This document shows, one piece after another, positions 25,356-43,531 of a stretch of DNA of 64,000 nt. Under the pieces are notes generated by a model that saw nothing but the letters and a program-made list of their open reading frames with translations, did not search any database and was not told the DNA's origin. The translations under genes and the position numbers were made by a program. The stretch covers positions 117,801 to 181,800 of the forward strand of contig JBKECN010000019.1 of NCBI GenBank assembly GCA_047974565.1. The letters run 5' to 3'. How positions within the stretch are numbered: position 1 is the stretch's first letter; each line of letters opens with the position of its first letter. This DNA is from Actinomycetales bacterium. GTDB lineage: Bacteria > Actinomycetota > Actinomycetes > Actinomycetales > CAWJMD01.

Positions 25356-25943
25356 TCAGCCGGGGTCGCAGTTCGCCGGGACGTAGTCGCCGGCGTGTTC
25401 GAACTCGTCGCAGGTCACCAACCGGTCGTTGTTCGCGCCGGCGAACCCGGCGAGCACGGTGACCGCGAGAATGATCACCACGGAGAGGATCTTGTCCTTG
25501 CGGTTCAGCCGGAAGAAGTCCAGGGCGAGGATGCGAGCGAGCGTGAACAGGATCAGCGGCAGCATCAGCACGAGCAGGATGACCGACACGATGTCCACCG
25601 CCAGCGCGTAGCCACGCAACCAGATCGCTGCCACGACGTAGCCGATGGGCGCCAGCAGGGCCAGCCGGATCCGCCAGTTGGTGACCAGGGTGCGGGGATG
25701 GGTGAGGCTGACCACGAGCACCACCAGCGCTGCGACGGCGATCGCGAAGAAGCGACGGTAGCCGATGACGATCCCGAAGGCGCCGAAGTCCCAGCCGACG
25801 CTCCAGCCGAACAGGCTGCCGCTCAAGGTGACAACCAAGAGCGCCCGGGCCGACGACTCGCGACGCACTCGCGCGGGCGCGGCGTGCCCGCCAGGTTCGG
25901 CCGGCGCCTCGGCCGGTTCGCCTGGGGTGGCTGCAGAGGTCAT
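25356..25943 (-). CDS. Hypothetical membrane protein coupled to fbiC
   Basis: ATGA overlap with the fbiC stop. About 5 transmembrane helices. C-terminal C-x13-C motif ([15 protein letters not shown]). Confidence 0.75.
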
Positions 25944-28750
25944 CGGCGACCGGGCGCGGCGGCGTCGGTGAGGTCGAGATAGCTGCGCACCGCCCGGGAT
26001 GCGTTGACCCGTTCGGCAGGGACCTGCCCGTACAGGGTTGTGCGCTGACGCCACGGACGCTCGGCGGCCTCGGCGACGGCCTCCAGTTGGTGCGGGGTCA
26101 TCCAGGAACCGTTCTCCGAGCCGGCCATCCGGGAGATCGTCTCCTCCATCAGGGTGCCGCCCAAGTCGTTGCAGCCGCCGCGCAGCATCGCCACCGCGCC
26201 GGGCACTCCCAGCTTGACCCAACTCACCTGGATATTGTCGATGAGACCATGGAGCAGGATGCGGGCGAGGGCGTGCACGGCCCGGTTCTCGTCCTGGGTA
26301 GGGCCCGGCCTGGCCAGGCCGGCCAGGTAGATCGGCGAGGACGAGTGCACGAAGGGCAGTGGCACGAACTCGGTGAATCCTCCTGTCTCCCGTTGAATGT
26401 CGGCGAGGGTTCGCAGATGGGCGACCCAGTGCCGGGGCTCGTCGACGTGGCCGTACATCATCGTCGAGGTGGACGGCAGCCCGATCGAGTGGGCGGTGCT
26501 GACCACCTCACGCCAGGCCGAGGCGGGCAACTTGCCCTTGGTGAGCACCCAGCGCACCTCGTCGTCGAGGATCTCCGCGGCCGTCCCGGGGATCGAGTCG
26601 ACCCCGGCGGCCTTCAACTCGGTGAGGAACTCTCTGACCGAAAGCCCGGTGCGGGCAACGCCATTCATCACCTCCATCGGCGAGAAGGCATGCAGGTGCA
26701 GGCCGGGGGCTCCGGATTTCACCGCCCTGGCCAGGTCGAAGTAGCCGGTGCCGGGCAGGTCCGGATGGATGCCGCCCTGCATGCACACCTCGGTGGCCCC
26801 GGCCTGCCAGGCCTGCTTGGCCCGCATCGAGACTTCCTCCAGGGAGAGAGTGAAAGCATCTGCGTCCGTGCGCCGTTGGGCGAAGGCGCAGAATCGGCAG
26901 CCGACGTAGCAGACGTTGGTGAAGTTGATATTGCGGGTGACGACGTAGCTCACCAGGTCTCCCACCGCGTCCGCGCGGAGCCGGTCGGCGAGCTGGCAGA
27001 CCGCATCCAAGGCGGTTCCCTGGGCGGTCATCAACGTCAGCGCCTGTTGCTCATTCAGCCCGGCCGGGTTCGACTCTGCCGCTCGCAGAGCAGCTTTGAC
27101 CTCCTCGGGAATGGATTCAGGGGACCGGTCGATCGCCGGTGAAGCGGTGGTCTCGGGCGGCTGGGCCGCGGTGCTCTCAGGCTGGGCTGCGGTGCTCTCG
27201 GGCTGCTGGCCCGCGGTGGCGCCCCCACGCCCCACCTGCGCGGCGAGTTCGGCCCAGTCGCCGTAGACGGCGTCGATGTCCGAGCGGGTGGCGGTGCGCC
27301 GGCCTTCGGCGTCGATCCCGGTCTGCAGGTCGACGCGTCCCGAACTCTGCCAGACCGGTTCCGGCTCCTGCCAGGCGATGCCCTGGGCGCGGGCGCCGGA
27401 CCGCAGCAGGCCGTCCTGATCGGCTAGGGCGCGTACGTGCGGCTGCACCCGGGGATCGATCCACGGCTCCTCGGCCAGCACGTAACGGGGGTGTGCGGTG
27501 AGACGGGCGCGCAACTCGAACCCACTGGCGGCGGTCGCCTCGCCCAGCACTGCCAGGTCCGGCCAGGCGCGCTCGGGGTTGACGTGGTCCGGGGTCAGCG
27601 GCGACACCCCACCCCAGTCGTCCACCCCCGCGGCGAGCAGGGCCGGCAGTTCGGCCAGGTCGGTGAGGTTCGGTGGCGCCTGGATGACCATTTTGGGGCC
27701 GAGCACGAGGCGGGCAAGCGCGATGACCGCCCGGTAATAGTCGTGCCCGGCGTCGGGGGTGGCGCGCATCGCCGTGCCGGGCTTGGCGCGGAAGTTCTGC
27801 ACGATGACCTCTTGGACGTGCCCGAACTGGGCGTGCGCGGCGCGGATCGCGAACAGCGTCTCGGCCACGTCGTCGGGCGTCTCACCGATCCCGACGAGCA
27901 GGCCGGTGGTGAACGGGATGGCCAGGCGACCGGCGTCGGTGAGGGTGCGCAGCCGGACGGCCGGGTCCTTGTCGGGCGAACCGTAATGCGGCTGGCCGGG
28001 GACCTCGAACAGCCGCCGGGAGGTGGATTCGAGCATCATGCCCATCGACGGCGCCACCGGCTTGAGCCGGTTGAGCTCGGCCCACGACATGACCCCCGGG
28101 TTGAGGTGAGGCAGCAGGCCGGTCTCCTCGAGGATCAGCACCGCGGTGGCCCGCACGTACTCCAGGGTGGAGGCGTAGCCACGCGATTCCAGCCATTGCG
28201 CGGCCTCGGGCCAGCGGTCCTCGGGACGGTCTCCCAGGGTCAGCAGCGCCTCGGCGCAGCCGAGCTCGGCGCCACGACGGGCGATGGCCAGCACCTCGTC
28301 CGGGGAGAGGAAGAGGTCCTCGCCGGCGCGGCGCAACTGGCCGGGGGTGGCGACGAAGGTGCAGTAGTGGCAGCGGTCGCGGCACAGCCGGGTGAGCGGG
28401 ATGAAGACCTTCGGGGAGTAGGTGACCACCGGGTCGCCGTGGCGGGCGCTGACGCCGGCGTCTCGCACCCGGGCGGCCGCCTGGGTGAGCCGGTCGAGAT
28501 CGTCGCCGCGGGCGAAGGTCAGGGTGGCCACCTCGGCCGCGTCCAGGGTGCCGGCGTTCTCGGCCCGGCGCAGGGCCCGGCGGATCGCGGTGGCGGTCGG
28601 CCGCCACCTGGTGGAGGCGCTCGCTTCTGCGGTGGCGGGTTCGCCGGATCCCCCGTCCGGCGAGGGTCCCGTGCTCGGCGTCGCGACCTCGCGGGAGGCC
28701 GGCTCGCGGCGTGCGGACTCGCGGTGTGTGAACTCGGTGGACTCATGCAC
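25940..28750 (-). CDS. fbiC: Bifunctional FO synthase (CofG-CofH fusion) for F420 biosynthesis
   Basis: Two radical SAM motifs, CRDRCHYC and [24 protein letters not shown] and [17 protein letters not shown] motifs. Confidence 0.96.
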
Positions 28751-28840
28751 CGTGCCATCGTGGCACCGCACCGGCATTCATGCCGATTCGCCCCGCCCGA
28801 AGGGCCGGGCGACCCGGGTGCCGACCGGCGCATCCCGTCG

Positions 28841-29048
28841 GGGTTCGAGCGGGCTCGGGTGGGGAGATCGGCCGAGCCGGCATGGGCCCGGCCGTCCAAG
28901 TGAGCCGCCGGGTTCGAATCGAGTGGGGCAGGCAGATCGGCTGAGCCTGCATGGGCCCGGCCGTCCAGGTGAGCCGCCCTCCCGGGTTCGAATCGAGTGG
29001 GGCAGCGAGATCGGCCGAGCCGGACCCGGCCGACCAGGCGAGTCGCCC
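28841..29048. repeat. Intergenic tandem repeat, about 70 bp x3
   Basis: GGGTTCGA...AGATCGGCCGAGCCGGCATGGGCCCGGCCGTCCA-x-GTGAGCCGCC repeated with small indels. Confidence 0.85.
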
Positions 29049-29154
29049 TCGGACGAGGGGTATCAGCCGACCCGGGCCGCATCGGTGCCGGGCGCCCGCT
29101 CGGGATACCCGGACCGACCATCGGCTGTCGGTGGGCAATGGCATCCTGTCGGGC

Positions 29155-31047
29155 ATGGACGTCGAACTGCGCGAGATCCGTGACTTCCTCGCCGCCACTG
29201 AGCCGTTCGACGCCCTGCCCGAGCCGGCCGTCAACGGCCTGCCCCGGCACCTGGGGGTTCGCTACTTCCGCCGCGGCAGCACCCTGCTGGCCCTGGGCGA
29301 GCAGGCCGCAGAGCTGTTCATCCTGCGCTCGGGCGCGGTCGACGTTCGCGATGAGAACGGTGAACTGCGGGATCGGCGTGAGCCCGGCGCCACCCTGGGC
29401 AGCACCAGCGCGATGACCGGTGAGCCACTCACCGTGACCTGTACCGCCATCGAGGATTCGTTGGTCTACGTGCTGCGCGCCGAACTCTTCGCCGAGCTGT
29501 TGGAGGCGCACCACGAGTTCGCCGAGTACTTCCGCACCCAGCGGGCGGCCCGGCTGCGGGCAGCCCTGATGCAGGCCCAGCTGGCCGACTCGCGCGAGCC
29601 GATCCTGCGGGCCCGGGTCCGCGATCTGTTCCGGCACCCTCCGCTGCTGGTCACCTCGAGCACGTCAGTGCGCGACTGCGCCCGGGCGATGCGCGAACAC
29701 GACCTGTCCGCGGTGCTCGTGACGGGCGACTCGGGTGAGGGCGAGGTGGCTGCGCCTGCCGGTGGGGTGGTGGGCATCGTCACCGACAAGGATCTGCGCA
29801 ATCGCGTGCTCGCCGCGGACGTCGACCCGGCCTCGCCGATCGCAACGGTGATGACGCCGTCGCCGAGCACCACCTCGGCCCGGTCCCTGGCCTTCGACGT
29901 GCTGATGAGCATGGTCGAACGCAACATCCACCACATGCCGGTGCTGGACGCGGGCACCGTGGTGGGGGTGATCAGTGGCAGCGACCTGCTGCGTCTGCAG
30001 AACGCCAATCCGCTGTTCCTCGTCGGCGATCTGGCCCGTCAGGATGATGTGGCCGGGGTGGCCTCGGTCAGTGCCCGGCTGCCCGCGGTGGTCGAGCAGC
30101 TCGTCGCCCAGGACGCCTCCGCGGACGACATCGCCCGGATCGTCACGGCGATCGGCGACGCGGTGGAGCGGCGGCTGCTGCAACTGGCGGAGTCGGCGCT
30201 GGGGCCACCTCCGATGCCTTACGCGTGGGCGGCTCTGGGGTCACAGGCCCGGTTCGAGCAGGGCCTGCACTCGGATCAGGACAATGCCCTGATCTTGGCG
30301 CAGGAGCCGGACGAGGACGCGTCCCGCTACTTCCATTCCCTGGCCCGCCAGGTCAGCGACGGCCTGGCCGAGTGCGGCTATCCGTACTGCAACGGTGAGG
30401 TGATGGCGACCAATCCGAAGTGGCGGCAGAGCCTGAACGCCTGGCGTCGCACCTTCACCACGTGGGTGCAGCGGCCCGAGCCGATGGCGGTCATGCATTC
30501 GACGATCTTCTTCGACATGCGGGCCCTGCACGGTGAGACCTCCCTGGTGGACACCCTGCGCCGGGACGTGCTCGCCACGACGCCGCAGGCGACCGCCTTC
30601 CTGGTCCACTTGGCCAAGCACGCGGTGCAGCGGCGTCCCCCGTTGGGGGTGTTCCGCGGTTTCGTCCTGGAGCACGAAGGCGAGCATTCGGACACGCTCG
30701 ATCTCAAGCACGATGGGGTGGCGATCGTCGTGGAGTTGGCCCGGGTGTACGCGCTGAGCCTGGGGCTGTCCCCGGTGAACACCCTGGCCCGGCTGGCCGC
30801 CACCGCGAAGGCCGGCAAGCTCAGCCAGTCCCAGGTCGGCGACCTCAGCGACGCCTTCGAGTTCATCGGCTATGTGCGGCTGCGCCATCAAGGTCGCCAG
30901 GTACATGCCAGGCAGGCTCCGGACAACCACGTCTCGCCGGACGAACTGTCATCGGCGGAGCGACGCCACCTGCGCGACGCCTTTGCGGTGGTGCGCCGGG
31001 CGCAGTCGACTCTGGCCGGTTCGTTCCCGATGCAGTACGTGTCGTGA
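29155..31047 (+). CDS. cNMP-binding / CBS pair / DUF294 nucleotidyltransferase-like protein
   Basis: N-terminal cNMP domain (LFILRSGAV), CBS pair (GIVTDKDLR, IHHMPV), Pol-beta-type GSQARFEQ-x3-SDQDN, CNGEVMATNPKW, FFDMR and DLKHDG. Confidence 0.92.
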   Translation: MDVELREIRDFLAATEPFDALPEPAVNGLPRHLGVRYFRRGSTLLALGEQAAELFILRSGAVDVRDENGELRDRREPGATLGSTSAMTGEPLTVTCTAIEDSLVYVLRAELFAELLEAHHEFAEYFRTQRAARLRAALMQAQLADSREPILRARVRDLFRHPPLLVTSSTSVRDCARAMREHDLSAVLVTGDSGEGEVAAPAGGVVGIVTDKDLRNRVLAADVDPASPIATVMTPSPSTTSARSLAFDVLMSMVERNIHHMPVLDAGTVVGVISGSDLLRLQNANPLFLVGDLARQDDVAGVASVSARLPAVVEQLVAQDASADDIARIVTAIGDAVERRLLQLAESALGPPPMPYAWAALGSQARFEQGLHSDQDNALILAQEPDEDASRYFHSLARQVSDGLAECGYPYCNGEVMATNPKWRQSLNAWRRTFTTWVQRPEPMAVMHSTIFFDMRALHGETSLVDTLRRDVLATTPQATAFLVHLAKHAVQRRPPLGVFRGFVLEHEGEHSDTLDLKHDGVAIVVELARVYALSLGLSPVNTLARLAATAKAGKLSQSQVGDLSDAFEFIGYVRLRHQGRQVHARQAPDNHVSPDELSSAERRHLRDAFAVVRRAQSTLAGSFPMQYVS

Positions 31048-31201
31048 TGGGCCGTGTCGTGATGGGCCGGTCGCGGGTCGTCGTGGACGGCTTCCGGATG
31101 GGCCGGGGGTCTCGGGTGACCCGGGCGTCTCTGGTGACCCGGGAGTCTCGGGCGGCCTGGAGGCGGGGCAGGCCGGGTTCGTGTCCGCGGGTGCGGGTGC
31201 G

Positions 31202-31897
31202 ATGAACCCGCTCGGTTTCGGACTCGGCTCGGTGGAGCGCCGACGTCGGCGCCTGCACCGGCGGGCCAGCCAAGGGCCGCTGCGGGAGTACCTCAATGTG
31301 CCCTTCCCCGCCCCGAGCACGCCCGCCGACCGGTTGGATCTGCTCGCGGTCGACCTGGAGACCACCGGACTGGACCCGGCCGTGGACCGGATCCTCAGCG
31401 TCGGGTATGTCCCGATCCGGGACGGGACGGTGCGGCTCAGCGGCGCCCGTCAGCACGTGGTGAGCCAGCGCCTGCCGGTCGGGCAGTCCGCCACCATCCA
31501 TCAGCTCACTGACGACGACGTGGCCGACGGCAGCTCGTTGGAGTTCGTCCTGACCGATCTGCTCGAGGCACTGCGCGGCCGGGTGCTGCTGGCCCATCAC
31601 GCCGAGATGGAGCGGGGCTTCCTCGCCCCGGCGATCAGGTCGGTGTTCGGATCGGCACCGGCGTTCTCGATCGTCGACACCCTGTTGCTGCAGGCCCGGG
31701 TGATGCGCGTGGAGTTGGAGGAGGCGCCGCGGGGCACGCTGCGGCTGGGAGCGGCCCGTGAGCATTTCGGGCTGCCGCGGTACCGCTCACACGAGGCGCT
31801 GACCGATGCGCTCGCCTGCGCCGAACTGTTCCTGGCCCAACAGGCCGAACTCGCCGGCCGGGGCACGGTGAGTCTGCGCACCTTGCAACGAGGTTGA
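31202..31897 (+). CDS. DEDDh 3'-5' exonuclease (DnaQ-like)
   Basis: VDLETTGL, AHHAEME, VDT and HEALTDA motifs. Confidence 0.9.
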   Translation: MNPLGFGLGSVERRRRRLHRRASQGPLREYLNVPFPAPSTPADRLDLLAVDLETTGLDPAVDRILSVGYVPIRDGTVRLSGARQHVVSQRLPVGQSATIHQLTDDDVADGSSLEFVLTDLLEALRGRVLLAHHAEMERGFLAPAIRSVFGSAPAFSIVDTLLLQARVMRVELEEAPRGTLRLGAAREHFGLPRYRSHEALTDALACAELFLAQQAELAGRGTVSLRTLQRG

Positions 31898-32812: not shown

Positions 32813-35800
32813 TCACTGCGATTCGTCCGGTGCCGCTCCCGGTTCAGCTCGGGCTCGCCACCAGTTGAGCAGTTCGATGAGACGGCAGGGCTCGGCAACC
32901 CGCTCCCCCGCGGCCGCCACGACCTCCGACTCCGGTAAGCCCTGGGTGAGTTCGTCCAGCCGGTCAAGCGCTCCCGCCAGCCCTTCCCCATCGCTCACGG
33001 CGCTCGAGGCGGCAATTGCCGCAGCCCACCACCCGATGGCGTTCACCGGCCCGGACCCACGTTCCTGGGCGAGTTCTGCGAGGACTCGCGCTGCGGTGGC
33101 CGCGTTCCGCATCGCGCCGACCCGGACAAACAGACCGTACGCGTCGGTGATGCGCTGTTCGGCGGTGTCGTAGTCGCCCCGAGCCTGCGCCAGGATCCCC
33201 AACTGGTGGTACCAGGAGGCTCGGCGATCATGCTCGTCAGGGAGGCGATTGAGCTGATCGGAGATGAGGGCCGCCTCTGCATCCCAGTGCCCTCGCTCGT
33301 GCATGGCCGAGGCGGCGTGTTCGGTGTCGCTGTTCGCCTCGTCCAGGTATCGTGCCGCCTCGTGGTGGTGGCGGGCCTCCAAGACATCGGCAATATCTGC
33401 GTCCCTGTCCTGGGGCCATACAGCCACCCGCCACAAGAAGTAATCTGCGGCTCTCACGTGAATGTCCTCGGAGTTCCCTGCACCCTCAGAGCCCGCAACC
33501 ACGGCCGCCGCGAGCCGGTCGAGTTCGCTTGCCGTCCACCGATGGACAAACCATCGATCGCCATCCTCGACGGAAGTCCTGGCCAACAGACTCGACATCA
33601 CCAGTTCCTCCAGAGCTGCCGACGGATCGGTCATCACCGAACGCGGGGGGCGGGGCAGCGCCCGATACTCCGCAATTGCCGCCAACAACTCCTCCCGACT
33701 CGTTGCATCCAGGGCGTCAAGGTCGAGGTCTCCACCCTCGTTCGGTTGTGCCCCGGAGCCGATGAGAACAGCCTCGATCCGTTTCGCCGCTGCGCCACGG
33801 TCTGGGACAAACGCTGCAGCCTCGTCCGGCTCGCCGACGGCAAACAGAACGGCGTTGTCATCAACAGGCCTGCGGAAGACCGCCAAGCCCGCCAGCAGGC
33901 GCCTCGCCTCGCCGGAGAGGTCGCTCAGGAGTTCTGGCAGCAGCACGTCGTCCGCCGCCAGCGTGACCGCGTCCGCCATGGCAGCGTCCAGGTCGCGCTC
34001 GCGATCCAGCCACCGCGCTGCTTGGTCGCTGCCGGACAGTGTCTCGGTGAGCCGCTTCTCCAGCCGTGTACGGATGTGTGGCAACCGTCCTCGGCCCCCG
34101 GCCAGTAGTGCGTCTACGGTCTCCAGCGTTCGTGGGTGGCCGCCGACCCCCGCCCACACCTGCCGGAGTTCGTCATCTGTCAGCGCGTCCAGCCGTGGCA
34201 ATGCCCACGCGAGTTTCATCGTCTCGGCGAACGTCAGCGGGCCCACCCGGTGGGCGAGCAGCAACTTCTGCGCGCCTTCGGGCAACTCCACCGGATGACG
34301 GCTGGTGATGAGCAGCCGCGCCCTGCCGGGGCTGGAAAGCCAGGACGCCAAGAAGGCCGCGAGTTCGGTGTCCCGCACCGAGTAGCCGGTATCGCCCCTG
34401 ACGAGGTTGTCCTCGAAGTTGTCCAGCACCACGACGAGATCGAAGTGGCGGAAGACGTGTTGTTGCAGCAGCGGTAGCCGGCTCTGCCATGGTTGGCGCC
34501 CGTCTTCGAGGAACTGCAGCAAGGGGGCTATCTGGTCCACTTTCCCGGCGGCTGCGTAGCGGCTCCGCAGCGCACTCGTGATCGCGAGGAGGACGCCATC
34601 CGGGTGGGTTTCCCGCTCGACCGTCACCTCCAGCATCTCGGGGAGCAACTCCCGGACCCGCCGAACGACCTCCGTCGCCAGGGTCGTCTTGCCGATCCCG
34701 CCAATGCCGGTCAGCATCGCCCCCGCATCCTGATCGCCGAGCATCACCCGGGCAAGCCGGTGCTGATCCGGTCGGCGGCCGACGAACTGTCCCGGGTCGA
34801 GAGCCAAGAGGTTGCCGACGCGTTCCGCGCCGGGGTTACGAAGGCGAAGATCGGGCAGACTGGGGAGCGAGGTGTCGAAGAGGCTGGCCGCTGGGTTGCT
34901 GGCCTGCACCGTCACCACGGCCCACTCATCCAGCGCTGCGATCGCCTCGTCGCGCGGGCTAGCCACGGACGCGAAACTCTCCTGGACGGCCCGACGAGCA
35001 CTGCCGACCGCCTCGACGGGACTCGGGATCACCGCTCGCGCCAGATCTGCGTACACCTGGGCGAACACCCGGGTGGCATACCGGTCGGTCACCGAGGTCT
35101 CGGTGCCCACGACCACCGGCACCCCCGCCGCGACCAGCCCGTCGGCGAACGCGGCTACGGGGCTGTCGGCCCCTTCACCAGGCACATTCGTGTAGCAGGC
35201 GGCCAGTGACACCATCGGGGGCATCTTGCCCGGCGGAACAGCGCCATCCACGAACTCGCGGGCAGTGACGAATACCGCCTTGCCGTCGTCACCCTCGAGG
35301 ACCAGACGTCCAGGCGAACCGTGCCCGGAAATGTGCAGAACGTGTACGTCCCCGGAATCGAGGTAGCTGCGGATAGCCGCCAGCGTCGCGAACGGCACCA
35401 CCCTGATTCGGGCATCGCCGCCGCGCGCGCCCTTCACGGCCGTGATGACGTTGCGCAGTTCGGTTTCGTAGTCCAGCAGCGCCCCGTTCCCGTCAATGGG
35501 GGACGCGATGGCCACGACGATGGTCAACGGCCCGGAGACGCTGCGGCCGGTCGCCCCGTCAGGGGCGGCGCGGTAGACGGTTGCCAGCGGATGCAGCGCA
35601 ACCGGAGTGGGGGTGCCGGGCACCACCAATGCCTCCCACGGCAGCCTGCGCAACGCCTCCTCCCGGACGTCGAAGCCGAGCCGGACCGGCATCGTCACCC
35701 GGGTCGCCTCGGCGAAAACCGTCGCCAGAGCAGCGCCCACCTCCCCGGCCAGGAACGCCGTGCTCAAGTGAGCGCTCAGTTCACGCATCCGGGTTCCGGC

Positions 35801-36670
35801 CGCGACGGAGCGCCCGACCGCGGAATCGTCGTGTCTGGCCTCCGCGTGGCTAGCCCGAACACGGTGCACGTCCCCCAGCAGGGACGCCATCCGGTGGGTG
35901 AACCCGTCATGAGGTGTCGTGGCGTCCAGGCCCAACTGCGGGCAGCGCAGCGACAGCGAATGGGCGTCCACCCTGATGATGACGTCGGCGGGTTCGGCCA
36001 GCTCCACTCGGCCGCGGACATCCAGCCCACCGCCGCACGACTCCCCCGCGGTCTCGACGACATCTTCGACGCGGACCAACCAGACGCTGTCCCGGGCCCA
36101 GCCATCCGCGGAGTTGTACCGGCCGGACACCATCCCGATGATCTGGCCGTCCGAGAGCCTGACCACCGGCCCGCCGGACAGGCCCTTGAGTACCCCGCTG
36201 GCGACGAGCACGCCGAGCCGGGTGGAGTCTTCGAACATCGTCAAGCCCATCCAGCGACCGGTCGTCGACCAGACCCGGCGAGCTCGTTCCTCGGTGGGAT
36301 CATCCAGGTAACCAGCCCCGACAGCCTGGGCTGGTTCGTCCGGGCGAACGAGGTCGGTGGCCGCGAGAACCGGCGTGGCACAGGCCCACCCGCCCGAGAG
36401 GATCGCCACGTCGAGCACGGCGTCAACGGCAAGCACGCGGGCCTGGCTGACAGCGGCAACACCTGCGCGGAGCGGTTCAATCGGCACGACGCTGCCCGGG
36501 TCGGGCGTGGCGGCGTCGTCCTGCCAGACGACCGGAAGGCTGCCCGTGACGTCCTGAACGACGTGATACGCCGTGACCACCACGCCGGGGGCCGCCACCC
36601 AGCAGGTGCCCACCGGTTCTGCAGCGGCCGTCAGGACACGACCCAGATATGCCTCGGGTAAACCCGTCAT
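32813..36670 (-). CDS. Trypsin-like peptidase + CHAT (caspase-like) + STAND/NB-ARC-like NTPase + TPR protein
   Basis: Trypsin triad TAYHVV / DVAIL / GLSGGP. CHAT dyad LHISGHG / SLAACY. Walker A GIGGIGKTT, Walker B VVVLDNFE, LLITSR and GGHP. C-terminal TPR (YHQLGILAQARGDY). Confidence 0.88.
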   Translation of the reverse strand: MTGLPEAYLGRVLTAAAEPVGTCWVAAPGVVVTAYHVVQDVTGSLPVVWQDDAATPDPGSVVPIEPLRAGVAAVSQARVLAVDAVLDVAILSGGWACATPVLAATDLVRPDEPAQAVGAGYLDDPTEERARRVWSTTGRWMGLTMFEDSTRLGVLVASGVLKGLSGGPVVRLSDGQIIGMVSGRYNSADGWARDSVWLVRVEDVVETAGESCGGGLDVRGRVELAEPADVIIRVDAHSLSLRCPQLGLDATTPHDGFTHRMASLLGDVHRVRASHAEARHDDSAVGRSVAAGTRMRELSAHLSTAFLAGEVGAALATVFAEATRVTMPVRLGFDVREEALRRLPWEALVVPGTPTPVALHPLATVYRAAPDGATGRSVSGPLTIVVAIASPIDGNGALLDYETELRNVITAVKGARGGDARIRVVPFATLAAIRSYLDSGDVHVLHISGHGSPGRLVLEGDDGKAVFVTAREFVDGAVPPGKMPPMVSLAACYTNVPGEGADSPVAAFADGLVAAGVPVVVGTETSVTDRYATRVFAQVYADLARAVIPSPVEAVGSARRAVQESFASVASPRDEAIAALDEWAVVTVQASNPAASLFDTSLPSLPDLRLRNPGAERVGNLLALDPGQFVGRRPDQHRLARVMLGDQDAGAMLTGIGGIGKTTLATEVVRRVRELLPEMLEVTVERETHPDGVLLAITSALRSRYAAAGKVDQIAPLLQFLEDGRQPWQSRLPLLQQHVFRHFDLVVVLDNFEDNLVRGDTGYSVRDTELAAFLASWLSSPGRARLLITSRHPVELPEGAQKLLLAHRVGPLTFAETMKLAWALPRLDALTDDELRQVWAGVGGHPRTLETVDALLAGGRGRLPHIRTRLEKRLTETLSGSDQAARWLDRERDLDAAMADAVTLAADDVLLPELLSDLSGEARRLLAGLAVFRRPVDDNAVLFAVGEPDEAAAFVPDRGAAAKRIEAVLIGSGAQPNEGGDLDLDALDATSREELLAAIAEYRALPRPPRSVMTDPSAALEELVMSSLLARTSVEDGDRWFVHRWTASELDRLAAAVVAGSEGAGNSEDIHVRAADYFLWRVAVWPQDRDADIADVLEARHHHEAARYLDEANSDTEHAASAMHERGHWDAEAALISDQLNRLPDEHDRRASWYHQLGILAQARGDYDTAEQRITDAYGLFVRVGAMRNAATAARVLAELAQERGSGPVNAIGWWAAAIAASSAVSDGEGLAGALDRLDELTQGLPESEVVAAAGERVAEPCRLIELLNWWRARAEPGAAPDESQ

Positions 36671-36755
36671 CGGTACTCCCCCCACGCGCCCCTGCGGCGC
36701 TGCTATGGACTACGAACGGCTCGTGCTGCCCAACCCGGCGACCTGGCCGTCATCG

Positions 36756-37082
36756 TCAGGTCGCCTCCCGCCGATACGTCATCGTCACGGCCAACGTCGC
36801 TTCAGCGGAGCCTTGAGCCACCAGCACCGTCCCTGACGTGGCGACCGTCAACCCGAACTGCACCGTCATCTCCTCCGGCCGGGCCGAGCGGCGAGCCAGT
36901 TCATCGAGCGAGTGCGCGACTTTGACGCCGATCTCCACGACGGCGTCCCGGGCGTTGTCGAAGGCCTCCATCACCTTCGCGGCGGGACCGGACGTCGGCT
37001 CGGAGCCCGGCGCGACGGCTGCCTCGACGAGTACCTGGGTGTCACCGAGTTCGACCGTGACGAGGCGGGTGGGGAGGCTCAC
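36756..37082 (-). CDS. Trypco1 / CU044_2847-family trypsin-co-occurring protein
   Basis: About 108 aa, with P-EE-MTVQFGL-x4-G-x3-VA-x-G-x-x-EATL-x-VTMTY, directly upstream of a trypsin-domain gene. Alternative starts at 37094 and 37109. Confidence 0.82.
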   Translation of the reverse strand: MSLPTRLVTVELGDTQVLVEAAVAPGSEPTSGPAAKVMEAFDNARDAVVEIGVKVAHSLDELARRSARPEEMTVQFGLTVATSGTVLVAQGSAEATLAVTMTYRREAT

Positions 37083-37139
37083 CCGACCAATCATGACAGA
37101 CCAGCACATACCAATGCGATGTTCATGTGTCGACTAAAT

Positions 37140-37168
37140 ACCCCATGGAGTTAAATGCGCCATGGGGT
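37140..37168. promoter_or_regulatory. Perfect 9-bp inverted repeat between divergent genes
   Basis: ACCCCATGG-AGTTAAATGCG-CCATGGGGT. Confidence 0.45.
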
Positions 37169-37202
37169 CGCTGAGCCCGTGCTCCCTACCTATGGTGGAC
37201 AA

Positions 37203-38015
37203 ATGAGACGGACCTTCTCGCAGATCCGCGACCTCCACCCGACTCGTCGGCACGTCCTCTTCAGCGCCGGTTCGGTGCTCGGCATCGCGATTCTCGGCAC
37301 CACGGCCTGCAGCCCTTCCGAATCTGGTCCTGCGGCAACGTCCTCCGGTGACGGCTCGACTCCGGACTCGTCAGGTAGTGGCCCGAGCGGCGGCGAGACC
37401 GGGCTGGTCTGGCAACAGGCCTCCATGGGGTTCGTGTCGGCCTACGTCCTGGTCCGTGCCCATGAAGCGGCGATCGTCGACACCGGAGCCGACGGGTCGG
37501 ACGCGCAGACCGCCATCGCGTCGGCATTGTCGTCCGTCGGGAGCGATTGGGACGCCGTCCAGCACATCGTGCTCACCCATCGACACGGCGATCACGTCGG
37601 GGGGCTCCCGACGGTGGCCACGGACGCACCCTCCGCGGCCCTCTATGCCGGCGCGGACGACATCGCCGAGATCACCGCGCCCGACGGCCGGCAGCTGACA
37701 CCCCTCGCTGACGGCACCGAGATCTTCGGTCTGCAGATCATCGGCACGCCCGGACACACCCCCGGGCACGTCTCGGTCTTCGACCCGACCACGGGCGTGC
37801 TCGTGGCCGGCGACGCGCTGCGCACCACCGATGGGCTGCAAGGATCCGACCCGCAGTACACCGCCGATCAGGGCGCGGCGGCGGAGTCGGTGCGCAAACT
37901 CGCCCAACTCAACGTGACGGCAATCCTGCCCGGCCATGGCCCGCCACTGACCACCGACGCCGCAGGCGCCTTGAGCACCCTCGCCGACTCGATCCAGATC
38001 CCCGCCAGCACCTGA
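37203..38015 (+). CDS. MBL-fold metallo-hydrolase, probable Tat-exported lipoprotein
   Basis: TRRHVL twin-arginine motif, TTAC lipobox, THRHGDH, PGHTPGH, AGD and PGHG. Confidence 0.88.
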   Translation: MRRTFSQIRDLHPTRRHVLFSAGSVLGIAILGTTACSPSESGPAATSSGDGSTPDSSGSGPSGGETGLVWQQASMGFVSAYVLVRAHEAAIVDTGADGSDAQTAIASALSSVGSDWDAVQHIVLTHRHGDHVGGLPTVATDAPSAALYAGADDIAEITAPDGRQLTPLADGTEIFGLQIIGTPGHTPGHVSVFDPTTGVLVAGDALRTTDGLQGSDPQYTADQGAAAESVRKLAQLNVTAILPGHGPPLTTDAAGALSTLADSIQIPAST

Positions 38016-38044
38016 TCGCGCACCCGAGTTGCCAGTACACGACC

Positions 38045-38929
38045 TCAGAACAGCGGGATGTCGATCGCATTCACCGAGAAGGTACCGCTCGAGGACGAAC
38101 CACCCTTCTTGCCGCCCCTACCGGTGCCTGGCGAACTCACGGTGTAGCGGTAGGTCCCAGTCGCGGTGGCGGTGAGGTCGAAGAAATCCCCCGGTTCGTA
38201 GGTGAATGTGGCGCCCGGTGCCAGATAGGGGCTGACGCGCTGCCCAGCAACGATGTTCCCGCTCGGGCCGGTGATGACGATGTCGGCGCTCACCGTGGTC
38301 CAGCGACGGCTGGTGTTCGTGACGACGATGCTGCCGGTGCTCACGTGACCAGTACGCGTGGCGTCGCCGGGAGCGAAGATGATGTGCCGCAGGTGGGAGC
38401 CGGACGCTCTGCAGCCGGACTGACTGCACAGGTAATCGGTGATCTCCTTGGCGGCGTATCCTCGGCCGACGGCCGCAGCGACCGTGCCGTTCACCGGCAC
38501 TGCGTAGATGGCGGCGGCTTCGGCCAACGTCGAATCCGGAGTGACGCCGTCGATAGTCGAATAGCCGGACTGGTTCTCAAACTCGAGCACCTCGACCACG
38601 TCGTCGTAGAAGTAGACGACTGTGTACCCACCGCTGCCCGCGTTTGGGATCGCACAGGTCGAGACGTCGGCGCACTGGTCCGCGCCCAACGTCCGCACGA
38701 CATCGGTCTGGGCCATCCCGATCGACAGCCGCTGTGGCAACCCGACTCCCGGGGTCAGGGTGGCATCGGCTGCCGCGTTTGCAGTCGGTGCCGCCGCCAG
38801 TCCGAATACCACAAGGCCCGCCCCCACGGCTCCCGTCCTGAGGAATCCCGTTCTGAGGACTCGTGACGGACGTGCAGATCCGATGTGAGTATTCGCGTGG
38901 GGGCGAGCTGGCAGAGCGGTGCGGCGCAT
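38045..38929 (-). CDS. Secreted hypothetical protein
   Basis: RBS GAGGA, signal peptide ending ANA-AA, two Cys pairs, beta-rich C-terminus. No family recognised. Confidence 0.7.
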   Translation of the reverse strand: MRRTALPARPHANTHIGSARPSRVLRTGFLRTGAVGAGLVVFGLAAAPTANAAADATLTPGVGLPQRLSIGMAQTDVVRTLGADQCADVSTCAIPNAGSGGYTVVYFYDDVVEVLEFENQSGYSTIDGVTPDSTLAEAAAIYAVPVNGTVAAAVGRGYAAKEITDYLCSQSGCRASGSHLRHIIFAPGDATRTGHVSTGSIVVTNTSRRWTTVSADIVITGPSGNIVAGQRVSPYLAPGATFTYEPGDFFDLTATATGTYRYTVSSPGTGRGGKKGGSSSSGTFSVNAIDIPLF

Positions 38930-39342
38930 AGGAGTTGGTTCCTCTCGATGAATGCCTGTGCAGAGCTATCTCTACGCCGGTCCAGCCGCTGAAACACGCT
39001 CTCGAGGTGATCGGTAAGAGGTCGGTAAGGATCGGTGTCGCTGACTTTCTTGGCCTGGCCTTCCTGGAGCACAGACGGCGCGTACCACCACCGGGTGCCC
39101 AGCTGGAAGCAACTGCGCTCGCTGCCGGTGACGCCCGGGCCAGCCCGGCAGGCTCGAGCGTCGCCGTCGACACGTCCACCACCGTCTGTGAGCAGGAGAA
39201 CCGGCCACGTGAGTGGTCGCGCTTCGGGCCGGACATCCAGGCCTCCTCGCCGAGTGGCCACGTCGGGGGACGTCGCGTGGATGCCCACCCAGTCTTGAGC
39301 AGCCGCGCCGGTGCAGCGTCGGTCGGCGGCCCAGCCGCCAGC

Positions 39343-40749
39343 TCATTCCCCGCTGGCGCCCACCTGCCCGCCAACACTCGACGGCTGGGCTGCCGGGGCG
39401 GGTTCACGGCCGGCAGGCTGGCCTGGGCTCATTCCCCTCGCCTCGACGGACACCAGAGTTCGACGATGGGCGGTACTCGCCACGGCGAGCGCGGCCAACA
39501 CAGTGACAACGACGAACGGATGGTCGACAAGCACATTCGCCAGCGGTTCGAGGGGATTCGCCGCAAGCACCCCGACGCGCTCGGCGAACCACGCAGCGGC
39601 CAGCACCAGACCCGTGGCCGCGAGGCCGGTGCGCAGCGCGCCATAGTGGCGGGTCCGGCTGATCGCGATGAGCGATGGCATCACCAGCGCCACCACGAGA
39701 AGTTGGGTCACTTCGACTCCGAGGTTGAAGCCGAGCAGGGTGGCCAGCAGGTGGTCCCGGCCAAGACCCAGATCTGCGAGCAGCGTCGCGAAGGCCAACC
39801 CGTGCAACAGGCCGAATCCACCGGCGATCAGTACCTCGCCTCGATGCACCAGTGGCCGGATCGCGTGGATGGCCGAGACCAGCACGGACAGCGCGATGCC
39901 GGCCTCGACGATCCGAGTGGGCACGTCGACCAACCCGAACGCTCCCAGCGCAAGAGTGAGGGAGTGCCCGACAGCGAAGGCGGTCACGACGTGGACGACG
40001 CGTAGGGTCGCGCGCCGCACCTCCTGACGGCCCGTCCAGCGTCGACCCACCTGGATCAAGGGCGCTGGGAGCAGCAGCATCACGAGAAAGAGCAGATGGT
40101 CACTCCCGGCACCGATGTGATGGATGCCGAGCCCGATGGCCGGGCCGAAACCCTGGGCGCCTGGGTCATTGCCGGCTTCGGCCACCGGTGATTCGGCCGG
40201 TCGAACGGGCACCGAGTCGGTCTGCCACGAGAGCATGGCCAACTCCGTGTAGTCCCCGGTGGCTGCGTACCGCCCGAAGACGAAGATGCGATGCGAGGCA
40301 AGCTTGTCCACGATGGCGTCGTCGTGGAACACGAACGAGCCAACCTGGCCCGAGCTCGGGACAAGCTGTGCCTGCAGGACGAGGTTATCGACGCCGTCCA
40401 CGTTCTCGACGGTGCCGCCGACGACCTGGGTGTGCCAGGTCGAGCCGGGTTCGGCGGGAGTTGCGCCGTCATCGGTCGCGCTCACGTGTCGGGCCACATA
40501 GTCCCGCAGCATGCTCAGCGTGGGTTCGGTCAGAACCGTCTGCGCGGTGAAGTCCTGGCCGAACGCGGTACTCAGCTCGTCCAGTGGGAGCGACACGTCG
40601 GCGTCCACCGCATCGATGCCGACGTCGAGTCGCACCGTGCTGACACTCATCGGGTGCGCCGCCGCCGGGGCGGAAAGACCCACGGCGAGGGCCAACCCGG
40701 CCAGCGCGACGGCCAGCCGGGTCAGCACCTTCGGTATTGAGGTTTTCAC
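39343..40749 (-). CDS. HupE/UreJ-family membrane protein with an N-terminal extracytoplasmic domain
   Basis: Signal peptide ending AAAH-P. HHIGAGSDHLLFL, TAFAVGHSLTL, FGLLHGLAFA and GFNLGVE motifs. Confidence 0.9.
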   Translation of the reverse strand: MKTSIPKVLTRLAVALAGLALAVGLSAPAAAHPMSVSTVRLDVGIDAVDADVSLPLDELSTAFGQDFTAQTVLTEPTLSMLRDYVARHVSATDDGATPAEPGSTWHTQVVGGTVENVDGVDNLVLQAQLVPSSGQVGSFVFHDDAIVDKLASHRIFVFGRYAATGDYTELAMLSWQTDSVPVRPAESPVAEAGNDPGAQGFGPAIGLGIHHIGAGSDHLLFLVMLLLPAPLIQVGRRWTGRQEVRRATLRVVHVVTAFAVGHSLTLALGAFGLVDVPTRIVEAGIALSVLVSAIHAIRPLVHRGEVLIAGGFGLLHGLAFATLLADLGLGRDHLLATLLGFNLGVEVTQLLVVALVMPSLIAISRTRHYGALRTGLAATGLVLAAAWFAERVGVLAANPLEPLANVLVDHPFVVVTVLAALAVASTAHRRTLVSVEARGMSPGQPAGREPAPAAQPSSVGGQVGASGE

Positions 40750-40758
40750 GTCAACACC

Positions 40759-40803
40759 CGATTCACGACCACATTCGATTCACGACGATGCTCGATTCAC
40801 GAC
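40759..40803. repeat. Three direct repeats with 17-bp period just upstream of the HupE/UreJ start
   Basis: CGATTCACGAC at 40759, 40776 and 40793. Confidence 0.8.
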
Positions 40804-40885
40804 GGTTCTCGGTTCGCAATGACGCCCGCTTCCCAACGAGCTGGGTTCGCGGGAACCGCGCCACCGGGGAATCCCGCCTGATCGA

Positions 40886-42043
40886 TCAACTGCTCGGGTT
40901 CGTGCTGCCGTAGTCGTCATTCTTGTCGCGGTACACACCGTGGTAGTGCAGGTCCGGGGTACTGCGACTGCGGGTGTTGACCAGCTCGATCCAGACGCGC
41001 GGGCCATCGATCCGCAGATACGTGCTCTCGCCATCAACGGTGTCGGAGTTCGCGTAGGCCACATAGGTCTCGTCGAGTTGGGACTCGTAGGTACTCATGA
41101 ACGAGGCCGCGAGATCGGAGTTGGCATCGCCGACCCAAGCCTGGATCGCTGCCTGCACCAGCTGCTGCTGATCAGCTGACAGAGAACTCACCTGGATCCC
41201 GGCAGTCTCGGGGAACTCGCCGCTGTCCACCCCCGGTCCCATGAGGATGTCATCGACCGTGGTCGTCAACTGTGCTGTGGCGAGTTGTTCGTCGGTCAGC
41301 GAGTCGAAGACGGCGAAAGCGGTGGTTGCCTTCTCCTTCAAGGGCTCAATGGTCTCATCACCCGAGGTGAAGGTCTTCGGTTCGGTCCCGCTGAAGGCGG
41401 GGGTGATGCTCGCAGTAGTGCCCAGATAGGTGTAGTTGCGGGCCAGGTGATGCCCGCCGAACTGCACCATGAACGGGTCGGTCTCAGACGGCTCACCGAA
41501 GAGGGCGATGTTGTAGTCGACATCGGCGCCGAACGCGTCATTGCCGTCTGCGCTGTTCTGGTTGAGCCAGTCGTCGGCCGCACGAATCGCCTCGACCTGC
41601 TCGTAGCCCTGCTCCGATGACATCGTCTCGACCAGCGCCAGCGCGGCAGCCCGGGACGTGTCATCGAGATCTGTCAACGAGACGCCCATTCGCGGCACCG
41701 TCTGCGTCGGGAAGTTCGACCACGTCTGCCGGGACTCATTATCGGAGAAGTCATAGGTCACGCTCTCCTTGGTGCTCTCGTCGAGCGTATCCAGGAAGGC
41801 ATTCGCGGCCGCCACGACCTCGGCAGTATTCGCGTCCGCACCGTTCTCGCCGTCCGTGTTGAGGTCTTGCGCGGTGAAGGTCTGCATACCTCCCCCCTGG
41901 CCGGGGCCGCCCGAGTCAGAACTACTCGAACTGCTGGTTGAGCTGGAACTGGAGTCCGTGGTGTCGGTAGCGCAAGCGGCCATCGATGTGATGAGCGCTG
42001 CACCGATCAGAGGCGTTGCGATTGAGCGGGAGATGCGTCTCAT
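40886..42043 (-). CDS. DUF3500-family lipoprotein
   Basis: MAAC lipobox, Ser-rich linker, WSNFP, QFGGHHLA, YLRIDGP-x-VWIE and HYHGVYRD motifs. Confidence 0.87.
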   Translation of the reverse strand: MRRISRSIATPLIGAALITSMAACATDTTDSSSSSTSSSSSSDSGGPGQGGGMQTFTAQDLNTDGENGADANTAEVVAAANAFLDTLDESTKESVTYDFSDNESRQTWSNFPTQTVPRMGVSLTDLDDTSRAAALALVETMSSEQGYEQVEAIRAADDWLNQNSADGNDAFGADVDYNIALFGEPSETDPFMVQFGGHHLARNYTYLGTTASITPAFSGTEPKTFTSGDETIEPLKEKATTAFAVFDSLTDEQLATAQLTTTVDDILMGPGVDSGEFPETAGIQVSSLSADQQQLVQAAIQAWVGDANSDLAASFMSTYESQLDETYVAYANSDTVDGESTYLRIDGPRVWIELVNTRSRSTPDLHYHGVYRDKNDDYGSTNPSS

Positions 42044-42113
42044 GAAGCGTTCTGTTCCTTCACGTTCTGGGTCTGTCGACCTATCGGGCGGGCTGATGCT
42101 TCGAGCGCGCCGC

Positions 42114-42146
42114 AGGCTAACGAGCCTTCCTGTGAAGAATCTGTGT
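42114..42146 (-). promoter_or_regulatory. OmpR/PhoP-type direct repeat plus -10 element for the DUF3500 operon
   Basis: Minus strand reads ACACAG-ATTCT-TCACAG (11-bp period), then 10 nt, then TAGCCT. Confidence 0.5.
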
Positions 42147-42249
42147 ATTCCGGACAGGATGAGCTTTCCGGAGGAACCCGCGGGAAAGCGGGGAGCAGGC
42201 TGGGAAGCAGGGAGCGGCGTCGGCTCCGCTAGACCTCCGGGTGCGCATT

Positions 42250-42480
42250 GCGAGTCTCATTGGCCTACGCCGGGCCACCGCCCAGCGCGTCGGCACACTC
42301 GCTCGCCAGCGCCGGGCAACCCGGTGCACCGTGCGACTCTCACTGGCCATGCGCCGGGGCACCCGACGCACCATGCGACTCCCACTCGCCAGCGCCGGGG
42401 CACCCGACGCACCATGCGACACTCACTGGCCAGCGCCGGGGCACCCGACGCACCATGCGACACTCACCCGCCAGCACTGG
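42250..42480. repeat. Intergenic tandem repeat, about 41 bp x5
   Basis: GCGACACTCACTGGCCAGCGCCGGGGCACCCGACGCACCAT-like units, degenerating leftwards, with no unique spacers. Confidence 0.88.
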
Positions 42481-42509
42481 GCCTCGCGGTCACCCGGCCA
42501 CTCACTGCC

Positions 42510-43460: not shown

Positions 43461-43474
43461 ACACCAATGATATG
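43458..43474. promoter_or_regulatory. LysR T-N11-A box
   Basis: CATA-CACCAATGA-TATG dyad between the divergent LysR and YeiH genes. Confidence 0.55.
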
Positions 43475-43531
43475 TCTTCGATGCCATATTGATGTCTTCT
43501 CAGATATGAGTCGAACGACGACAGTGGAGTC

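Follow-up and report, generated by a model that had tools for sequence, protein, structure and literature searches.

The window, that is, the 64-kb stretch of DNA analysed here, belongs to contig JBKECN010000019.1 of Actinomycetales bacterium GCA_047974565.1, and all positions given below refer to it. On its reverse strand it carries a small gene of the Trypco1 type and, directly downstream, a large gene whose product unites a trypsin-like serine protease, a caspase-like CHAT protease, an NTPase of the STAND type (signal transduction ATPases with numerous domains) and a tetratricopeptide-repeat (TPR) region. On balance, the two genes probably form an abortive-infection (cell-suicide) module resembling the nucleotide-binding leucine-rich-repeat receptors (NLRs), in which one sensor controls two parallel death arms. 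Parallel arms are favoured because relatives in which the serine protease is missing or replaced by a TIR domain keep the catalytic dyad of the CHAT protease, because two relatives with a dead serine protease (L070 and L076) keep their CHAT without Trypco1, and because another (L052) presents the converse. It falls into the Pepco-protease-STAND class, as a version with two proteases built on a caspase/Apaf-1-like chassis.

Gene layout and domain architecture

The two genes and the parts of the large protein are located as follows.

32813..36670, minus strand: gene of the trypsin-CHAT-NB-ARC-TPR protein (P0003), 1285 aa (open reading frame, Pfam, AlphaFold2 models, Foldseek)
36756..37094, minus strand: Trypco1/Pepco-type small gene, 112 aa from ATG 37094 (Pfam PF19493, homologue alignment)
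36671..36755, minus strand: spacer of 85 nt between Trypco1 and the large gene, with GGGGGGAG directly before ATG 36670
36041..36670, minus strand: trypsin-like serine protease domain of the HtrA/Trypsin_2 type, aa 1-210 (Pfam, Foldseek)
34901..35989, minus strand: CHAT module (caspase-like, clan CD), aa ~228-590, including an N-terminal sheet/helical subdomain (Pfam, PDB profile, Foldseek)
33881..34789, minus strand: NB-ARC-type STAND NTPase, aa ~628-930 (motifs, AlphaFold2 model and Foldseek)
32816..33880, minus strand: helical/winged-helix region, short TPR-like sensor and C-terminal cap, aa ~931-1285 (AlphaFold2 model)

The open frame of the large gene extends over 32813..36685 (-) and would yield 1290 aa from a GTG start. 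The ATG at 36670, with GGGGGGAG just ahead of it, is the likely start and leads to a protein of 1285 aa, identical to P0003, the database cluster representative of the same length. For Trypco1, the frame stays open to ATG 37109 (36756..37109, 117 aa), but an alignment of homologues indicates that translation probably begins at ATG 37094. Being on the same strand, both genes probably form one operon, and a scan limited to consensus sequences revealed neither a sigma-70-like promoter nor a terminator-like site between them. Among the public sequencing runs no RNA run is listed, and the DNA runs listed match in part, with at most 0.28 of the sampled words.

An earlier note on this DNA, made from the letters alone, had named all four domains of the large protein, and these have been borne out, the two proteases by Pfam and the NTPase and TPR region by AlphaFold2 models and Foldseek. 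All the motifs it had quoted, those of an intact trypsin triad and CHAT dyad included, are present, to within ~15 nt of where it had placed them. In P0001 numbering, they begin at residues 38 (TAYHVV), 92 (DVAIL), 168 (GLSGGP), 451 (HISGHG), 494 (LAACY), 660 (GIGGIGKTT) and 754 (LDNFE). Residues 26-185 match Pfam Trypsin_2 with 33.5 bits (cut-off 27.6), and the triad, H36, D87 and S165 in P0003 numbering, is complete. The CHAT match covers residues 331-570 with 58.8 bits (cut-off 24), its dyad being H450 (in SGHG) and C492 (in LAACY), again in P0003 numbering.

Two AlphaFold2 models, built on family alignments, cover aa 1-630 (predicted local distance difference test, pLDDT, 87.3; predicted template-modelling score, pTM, 0.75) and aa 600-1285 (pLDDT 87.2, pTM 0.76), with a pLDDT mostly above 85 in the C-terminal region. 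Both protease folds are supported by Foldseek as well as by Pfam. Against the PDB, the trypsin domain retrieves MucD, HtrA1, DegQ and Rv3671c (E 1e-11 to 1e-9), and the CHAT domain retrieves SAVED-CHAT (8tl0, 5.6e-13), Craspase Csx29 (~395 columns) and separase (5fby); a PDB profile search with CHAT also leads to 8tl0 (4e-12). The CHAT module combines a Pfam match above its cut-off, a His-Cys dyad and the caspase-hemoglobinase fold, as is characteristic of clan CD. Between the two proteases lie ~15-20 variable residues (211-230) with a pLDDT of 74-82; the model is a compact two-domain one with no long disordered linker, and no conserved candidate cleavage motif was found in this junction.

The NTPase bears Walker A GIGGIGKTT (K661), Walker B VVVLDNFED (D750) and GGHPRTLE, which we take to be motifs of the NB-ARC type. 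All Pfam matches to residues 633-761 stay below their cut-offs (AAA_22 24.4/27, AAA_16 19.2/32.6, NB-ARC 16/23.5 bits), and so does TPR_12 (20.6 bits, cut-off 30.1), of which about one repeat is recognisable. Both calls are nevertheless accepted because the AlphaFold2 models and Foldseek back them. The closest structures to the NTPase/C-terminal model are the STAND-TPR protein 6mfv (7e-11) and Apaf-1 (6e-8), joined by CED-4 and the plant coiled-coil NLRs Sr35, ZAR1 and NRC, over a range of 7e-11 to 1e-5, and by MalT; at the sequence level, the NTPase region alone found no match in the PDB. The motifs and the Apaf-1/CED-4-like succession of nucleotide-binding, helical and winged-helix domains are those of the NB-ARC/AP-ATPase clade, although the Pfam NB-ARC match itself is below cut-off. 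With a model nearest to Apaf-1, CED-4 and plant NLRs, the term NLR-like, already used in the earlier note, is a fair label for the predicted protein. Its C-terminal part is modelled with ~11 helices at aa ~1067-1275.

A conserved core with exchangeable heads

Relatives were sought in one genome per species from 185,579 species. A relative was found in 276 stretches, of which the best 80 were examined; the locus counts that follow refer to these. A whole-protein search with 8000 candidates scored gave at least 154 matches, the best being 53% identical and most 40-45%. Most of them contain Trypsin_2, CHAT and many TPR families, and they come from Nocardia, Micromonospora, Actinomyces, Amycolatopsis, Streptomyces, Pseudonocardia and others. 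Relatives are mostly 1300-1700 aa long, and other lineages too have short proteins of 1195-1290 aa (P0061, P0068, P0082, P0085, P0091).

The catalytic residues hardly vary when 120 family proteins are aligned. The trypsin His is present in 100/101 non-gap rows, the Asp in 102/108 and the Ser in 103/103; the CHAT dyad is kept in 119/119 non-gap rows (His) and 120/120 (Cys), and the Walker A Lys, the Walker B Asp and a Glu in 120/120 each. Judged by this alignment, all the active sites are under purifying selection. Counted by locus, the trypsin-headed forms retain the triad His in 49 of 51, the Asp in 51 of 51 and the Ser in 49 of 51, and 46 of 51 keep both triad and dyad. In L091, a Tyr replaces the initial His of the H..GH motif. 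Some relatives appear decayed, their large frames stopping at 113 aa (L034), 227 aa (L045) and 941 aa (L073); assembly errors are a possible cause.

The CHAT-NB-ARC-TPR core is constant, and it is headed by a trypsin domain, a TIR domain or nothing. A trypsin head occupies the N-terminus in 52/80 loci. The other 28 begin at about residue 208-302 of the query, in the N-terminal CHAT subdomain, or at contig ends; eight have a TIR domain (TIR_2 at 90.5 bits in P0117), about 15 are headless, one (L080) has a divergent trypsin-like head, and the rest are contig-cut or interrupted. Headless loci keep Cys492 and His450 of CHAT together with Walker A and Walker B in 15/15 cases, and all eight TIR-headed loci keep both dyad residues.

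A FastTree phylogeny of the core (aa 330-1000, 78 rows, local support values, midpoint root; the interrupted L034, L045 and L056 left out) sets a TIR clade (eight TIR-headed rows and two without a head) apart from the other 68 rows, which form a second clade, and places the window protein with Nostocoides/Dermatophilaceae and Actinomyces (support 98). The headless group from Dactylosporangium and Actinoplanes (Micromonosporaceae) is nested among trypsin-headed rows with a support of 96. Because of this nesting, loss of the head is the more likely course in this group, and the tree suggests that the trypsin head was indeed lost there. The opposite idea, that a trypsin head was added to an ancestral headless core, is unsupported, since the headless Micromonosporaceae clade sits within the trypsin-headed rows.

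Headless forms can be numerous within a genome. One Dactylosporangium genome, represented by two records, encodes at least six headless CHAT-NB-ARC-TPR paralogues (L055, L056, L057, L060, L067, L085), of which L056 is interrupted. TIR-CHAT-NB-ARC-TPR relatives also occur beyond Actinomycetota, in metagenome-assembled genomes of Thermoanaerobaculia/Acidobacteriota (L077, L082, L090), and cluster with the actinobacterial TIR forms. Their placement suggests that TIR-headed forms have moved between phyla.

Trypco1 accompanies the serine protease

The small gene is a clear member of its family: PF19493 matches with 58.2 bits (cut-off 24.6) and CU044_2847_fam with 45.9 bits (cut-off 23), and it lies directly upstream of the large gene, as the earlier note had described, at a distance of 85 nt. 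Among the 80 loci, 43 of the 52 with a trypsin head have Trypco1 directly upstream and in the same orientation, versus none of the 28 others. The nine exceptions are of several kinds. L037 has no upstream sequence, L022 has a divergently oriented Trypco1, L069 retains a degraded remnant, and L070 and L076 have dead triads. The remaining four (L028, L033, L051, L071) combine an intact triad with the absence of Trypco1 from the 1.5 kb upstream; in L033 and L051, one lies ~7 kb downstream.

For scoring, 74 loci including the window were used, with seven left out (three interrupted genes and four without upstream sequence) and the L080 head counted as not intact. Trypco1 occurs with an intact triad in 43 of them, both are missing in 26, the triad stands without Trypco1 in five, and Trypco1 without an intact triad was never seen. 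An adjacent Trypco1 is hence found in 43/48 loci with an intact triad versus 0/26 without one. By comparison, of 31 loci that have no Trypco1, 29 retain an intact CHAT dyad.

Natural variants separate the two proteases further. In L070 and L076, the triad is dead (H to R/Q, S to I/R) and CHAT intact, and the 1.5 kb upstream contain no Trypco1. In L052, the CHAT dyad is dead (H450P, C492G), and the triad and Trypco1 are retained. Dead dyads among trypsin-headed loci are limited to L051, L052 and L069, all three of which keep the triad; L069 carries C492A, with only an N-terminal Trypco1 remnant upstream. These variants tie Trypco1 to the serine protease and also show that CHAT is maintained independently of the trypsin-Trypco1 arm. 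No other neighbour family recurs across the 80 loci, and this includes any conserved gene for a CHAT substrate. Nor did 10 candidate open reading frames upstream of L028, L033, L051, L070, L071 and L076 show a Pfam family that could mark an alternative small partner.

Relation to known systems

Trypco1 and Trypco2 were named as companions of trypsin-like peptidases in conflict systems, which are framed as belonging to multicellular bacteria, in the searchable text of Kaur et al. 2020 (PMC7159879). In the accessible main text of Evans et al. 2025 (bioRxiv 10.1101/2025.11.14.688446), both are treated as "Pepco". The example described there is SsPepco (117 aa), whose gene lies just upstream of that for trypsin-Avs4 in Streptomyces subrutilus. 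SsPepco is a pre-assembled pore toxin, a beta-barrel of 9-10 subunits that resists sodium dodecyl sulfate. The trypsin domain of SsAvs4 removes a C-terminal tail of ~2 kDa (~20 residues) by cutting after a conserved Ile97, and SsPepco truncated exactly at Ile97 kills E. coli. Toxicity depends on Pepco and the catalytic Ser, and phage portal proteins act as the trigger (all from the same text).

The window module shares with this system the small Pepco gene upstream on the same strand, the N-terminal trypsin fused to a STAND NTPase and a helical-repeat sensor, the actinobacterial host, the intact catalytic Ser and a Pepco of ~112-117 aa. It differs by the complete and catalytically intact CHAT inserted between trypsin and NTPase, and by an NTPase that is NB-ARC/Apaf-1-like, with no PADLOC match to Avs. 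Because Evans et al. treat Trypco1 and Trypco2 as Pepco and report toxicity activated by cleavage of the tail, Trypco1 is a probable substrate and effector; by this analogy, the window Trypco1 is very likely a latent pore-forming effector and the substrate of the trypsin domain. The earlier note had seen no obvious substrate gene beside the large one, a view that no longer stands if Trypco1 itself plays this part. In the ESM Atlas, the small window protein falls into Trypco1 clusters and has PF24393 Pepco as a structural neighbour (template-modelling score 0.61/0.64), which should be taken as a lead only. A predicted complex of four Trypco1 copies scored 0.20 (mark 0.42), with an uncertain fold of the protein itself, and speaks neither for nor against oligomerisation.

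The rest of the large protein has its own precedents. Bacterial fusions of a caspase-like protease with an Apaf-1-like/AP-ATPase STAND have been described (in the available parts of bioRxiv 10.64898/2026.01.04.697583 and PMC7159879). As in these, a caspase-superfamily protease stands directly N-terminal to an NB-ARC NTPase and a repeat sensor in the window family, in effect an apoptosome that brings its own caspase, and the headless relatives correspond to this arrangement exactly. The bacterial Apaf-1 orthologues presented in 10.64898/2026.01.04.697583 have beta-propeller sensors, unlike the TPRs of the window family, and the window protein adds the second protease head and Pepco.

In a type III-B CRISPR/CBASS hybrid (cyclic-oligonucleotide-based antiphage signalling system), SAVED-CHAT becomes active on oligomerising and turns on a second protease, PCaspase, by specific cleavage, according to the accessible text of Steens et al. 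(bioRxiv 10.1101/2023.06.23.546230; 8tl0). It is the closest solved CHAT fold, and both systems have two proteases. In SAVED-CHAT, the SAVED sensor binds cyclic triadenylate (cA3), the second protease is separate and caspase-like, and the cascade has been demonstrated, in contrast to the serine protease fused in cis in the window protein. Type IV Thoeris, whose caspase-like protease degrades proteins indiscriminately as reported in the accessible text of Rousset et al. (bioRxiv 10.1101/2024.10.24.620036), is a precedent for a caspase-like terminal effector with no dedicated substrate encoded next to it. The TIR-headed relatives share its two domain types, TIR and caspase-like, but in Thoeris IV these reside on separate proteins that communicate through the small molecule N7-cADPR, and no STAND NTPase takes part, while in the window family they are fused.

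A Trypco gene accompanying a trypsin-like peptidase is also known from the vWA-MoxR VMAP ternary systems in the searchable part of PMC7159879. At the positions analysed in that text, trypsin and caspase are mutually exclusive, unlike in the window protein, which has both in one polypeptide. No description of a tandem trypsin-caspase protein, or of NB-ARC, CHAT, Trypsin_2 and TPR together, was found in the searchable main texts; supplements may list it. The earlier note had known of no experimental characterisation; this holds, within the literature searched, for the tandem of trypsin and CHAT, but not for the Pepco/trypsin-STAND part, which is covered by the main text of Evans et al. 2025.

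Proposed mechanism and alternative explanations

On the reading preferred here, the C-terminal TPR region would bind the trigger, by analogy a phage protein. As the fold and the general behaviour of STAND proteins imply, oligomerisation of the NB-ARC domain would then bring the N-terminal proteases together and activate both. In the first arm, whose counterpart has been demonstrated for SsPepco and trypsin-Avs4, the trypsin domain would cut off the short C-terminal tail of Trypco1, and the latent oligomeric beta-barrel would become a membrane pore. In the second arm, to which the conservation of CHAT and the CHAT-only relatives point, active CHAT would cut targets encoded outside the locus, which may be cellular or phage proteins, or else the large protein itself. 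The trypsin-Trypco1 arm would be an exchangeable module rather than part of an obligatory series, because relatives swap it for a TIR head or lose it.

Several findings weigh against this proposal. Mechanistic transfer from SsPepco rests on the grouping made by Evans et al., because their main text does not give the Pfam class (Trypco1, Trypco2 or PF24393) of SsPepco. In an alignment of 38 homologues of the window Trypco1, Tyr107 ends the last strand and is conserved to at least 90%, and no conserved Ile precedes the tail in this subfamily. The tail itself counts 5 residues after the Tyr (RREAT), unlike the ~20 after the conserved Ile of SsPepco; in relatives, it ranges from 4 to ~60 residues and is acidic and rich in Pro and Gly. 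In a sample of Streptomyces Trypco1 proteins, drawn from a search with a Trypco1 match in 124/151 genomes (a tally including one, G172, flagged as unpublished), the 34 aligned sequences have a Trp where the window subfamily has its Tyr. Either the residue preceding the cut (P1) would differ in the window subfamily, or SsPepco would represent another Pepco subfamily. The association of Trypco1 with the triad also weakens when common descent is considered: among nine phylogenetically independent pairs, five change the same way, none the opposite way and four show no difference (p = 0.06, not significant). The CHAT-dead L052 lineage may simply be decaying, as its sister L069 has no more than a Trypco1 remnant. 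On the sensing side, about one TPR_12 unit is recognisable in the window protein versus 4-9 in the relatives P0004 and P0117, and with so short an array the window copy might sense differently or poorly. PADLOC profiles, taken up to E 0.1, include no matching Avs model and hit only the trypsin domain (PDC-M35A at 2e-8, and RT-Protease_XI); no Avs structure is among the listed Foldseek matches of the NTPase/TPR model either. Finally, the neighbouring genes are housekeeping ones, and there is no defence island.

The earlier note had read the two proteases in series as a proteolytic cascade. In its most explicit form, oligomerised CHAT would cleave and thereby activate or release the fused trypsin, which would then process Trypco1. 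The closest solved CHAT, 8tl0, acts as just such an oligomerisation-activated initiator of a second protease (10.1101/2023.06.23.546230, accessible text), the two active sites are conserved together in most trypsin-headed loci, and the order trypsin-CHAT-NTPase sets CHAT beside the oligomerising hub. Yet headless relatives with neither trypsin nor Trypco1 have kept the dyad throughout and multiplied within genomes, and CHAT must therefore have other targets; L052 retains its triad and Trypco1 despite a dead CHAT, in TIR-headed relatives the same core bears a head that is no protease, and the trypsin-CHAT junction is short, modelled with moderate confidence and devoid of a conserved candidate cleavage motif. 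The comparative data thus favour parallel arms, and the cascade is retained as an unlikely rival. Marginally less probable than this is an intramolecular relay, in which CHAT, activated by proximity, would license the serine protease by cutting the sensor or a neighbouring protomer. Release of the Pepco pore would have to wait for this step, and CHAT would in addition degrade the proteome as an effector.

It is also conceivable, but improbable, that CHAT has no external substrate and works as a regulatory, auto-processing or oligomerisation module, for instance as a safety catch or self-destruct timer, Trypco1 then being the sole death effector of the trypsin-headed forms. The lack of a conserved substrate gene beside CHAT in the 80 loci would fit, as would the fact that CHAT and its N-terminal subdomain are a constant part of the chassis. 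Headless forms would then be left without an effector, even though they preserve dyad, Walker A and Walker B in 15/15 cases, and the invariant His and Cys speak for catalysis instead of a purely structural role. Least probable among the alternatives, and rather remote in our estimation, is that the module is no antiviral system at all, being instead a programmed-cell-death device of filamentous actinobacteria for development or kin conflict, or a poorly functional remnant with a shrunken sensor. Housekeeping and metabolic neighbours with no defence genes, the absence of matches in plasmid and phage collections, and the frame of conflict systems of multicellular bacteria given by Kaur et al. 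2020 (PMC7159879, searchable text) are in line with a non-antiviral role, but the Pepco-trypsin-STAND system that was tested answers to phage portal proteins (10.1101/2025.11.14.688446, main text). For a remnant, one could cite the short TPR array (one recognisable TPR_12 instead of 4-9) and the interrupted or decaying copies among relatives (L034, L045, L056, L069); however, the window frames are uninterrupted with every catalytic residue intact, short forms of similar length recur in other lineages, and the C-terminal model is confident.

Genomic context and distribution

The neighbours of the module encode an FbiC-like radical SAM protein, a DUF294 protein, an RNase T-like exonuclease, an acyl-CoA thioesterase II, an MBL-fold (metallo-beta-lactamase) protein, HupE/UreJ and DUF3500. 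The guanine-cytosine content does not dip at the locus. No vWA, MoxR ATPase or VMAP-C is found among the neighbours, and a tblastn search with the large protein gave no match in the plasmid and phage collections.

The distribution is patchy, as expected of accessory genes. In 40 related genomes, including both of the same genus, no full-length relative was detected, one partial CHAT-NTPase match (E 3e-41) and one trivial match apart. In a complete genome of the same genus (L011, G002:C1), the acyl-CoA thioesterase gene adjoins the homologue of the LysR-type regulator at 42510-43487 of the window. Because the same flanking genes are adjacent there, the ~9.7 kb in between (window 32813-42510) can be regarded as a variable stretch; its six genes comprise the module, the MBL-fold gene, a 294-aa open reading frame with no family, HupE/UreJ and DUF3500. 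Of the DUF294 and RNase T genes, which lie upstream of the thioesterase gene in the window, no counterpart was found in the L011 locus.

The MBL-fold hydrolase gene (37155-38015, +) is divergent from Trypco1. By eye, its product has a twin-arginine/lipobox-like N-terminus (…TRRHVLF…LGTTAC) followed by a linker rich in Ser, Gly and Pro. Protease-activated MBL zymogens do exist according to the main text of bioRxiv 10.1101/2025.11.14.688446, and the protein was considered as a CHAT substrate. This was rejected in view of the lipobox-like N-terminus, the likeness to glyoxalase II and lactonases, and the fact that no MBL gene recurs beside family members. The hydrolase is probably exported as a lipoprotein of the glyoxalase-II/lactonase type rather than serving as an MBL effector activated by a protease.

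The source genome has a second, unrelated Pepco module elsewhere (L010:5296-8422). Its Trypco1 gene, at G000 C29:42077-42343 (-), is a 119-aa open reading frame with 65 bits and overlaps the start of a gene whose 938-aa product is a trypsin-STAND(AAA_16/nSTAND1)-WD40 protein lacking CHAT. Between the Trypco1 proteins of the two modules, identity is 21%, and their associated trypsin domains show no BLASTP similarity (E 0.53).

Two further observations concern the DNA beyond the module. At 28951-31897 (+), an open reading frame for a protein with cyclic-nucleotide-monophosphate-binding, CBS and DUF294 nucleotidyltransferase domains overlaps that of an RNase T/DEDD exonuclease by ~175 nt; the two genes may be a functional pair. 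The gene at 25940-28777 (-) encodes 945 aa with CofH_C and two radical-SAM stretches, a product that resembles a fused FbiC-type enzyme of F420 biosynthesis. Its match to Phage_T7_Gp5_9 (23.8 bits, cut-off 24.5), in which no single stretch passes by itself, is almost certainly due to chance.

Implications

The module is not categorically new, but its tandem architecture, widespread in actinobacteria, is undescribed in the searchable texts. As a rule, a bacterial NLR-like sensor has a single effector. The family found in the window places two mechanistically different proteases, together with a separately encoded candidate pore toxin, on one sensor, and the coordination of several death effectors on one oligomerising hub becomes testable in a two-gene system. 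Such questions are directly accessible because natural variants exist, namely headless forms, TIR heads, dead triads and dead dyads. If the relay were true, it would provide a two-key safety for a lethal pore and be the first mixed serine/cysteine protease cascade within a single bacterial NLR. The Pepco mechanism would moreover extend to a subfamily with very short tails and with an aromatic residue instead of Ile at the presumed cleavage site, and the Trypco1 subfamily of the window puts to the test how general the rule "cut the tail, open the pore" may be.

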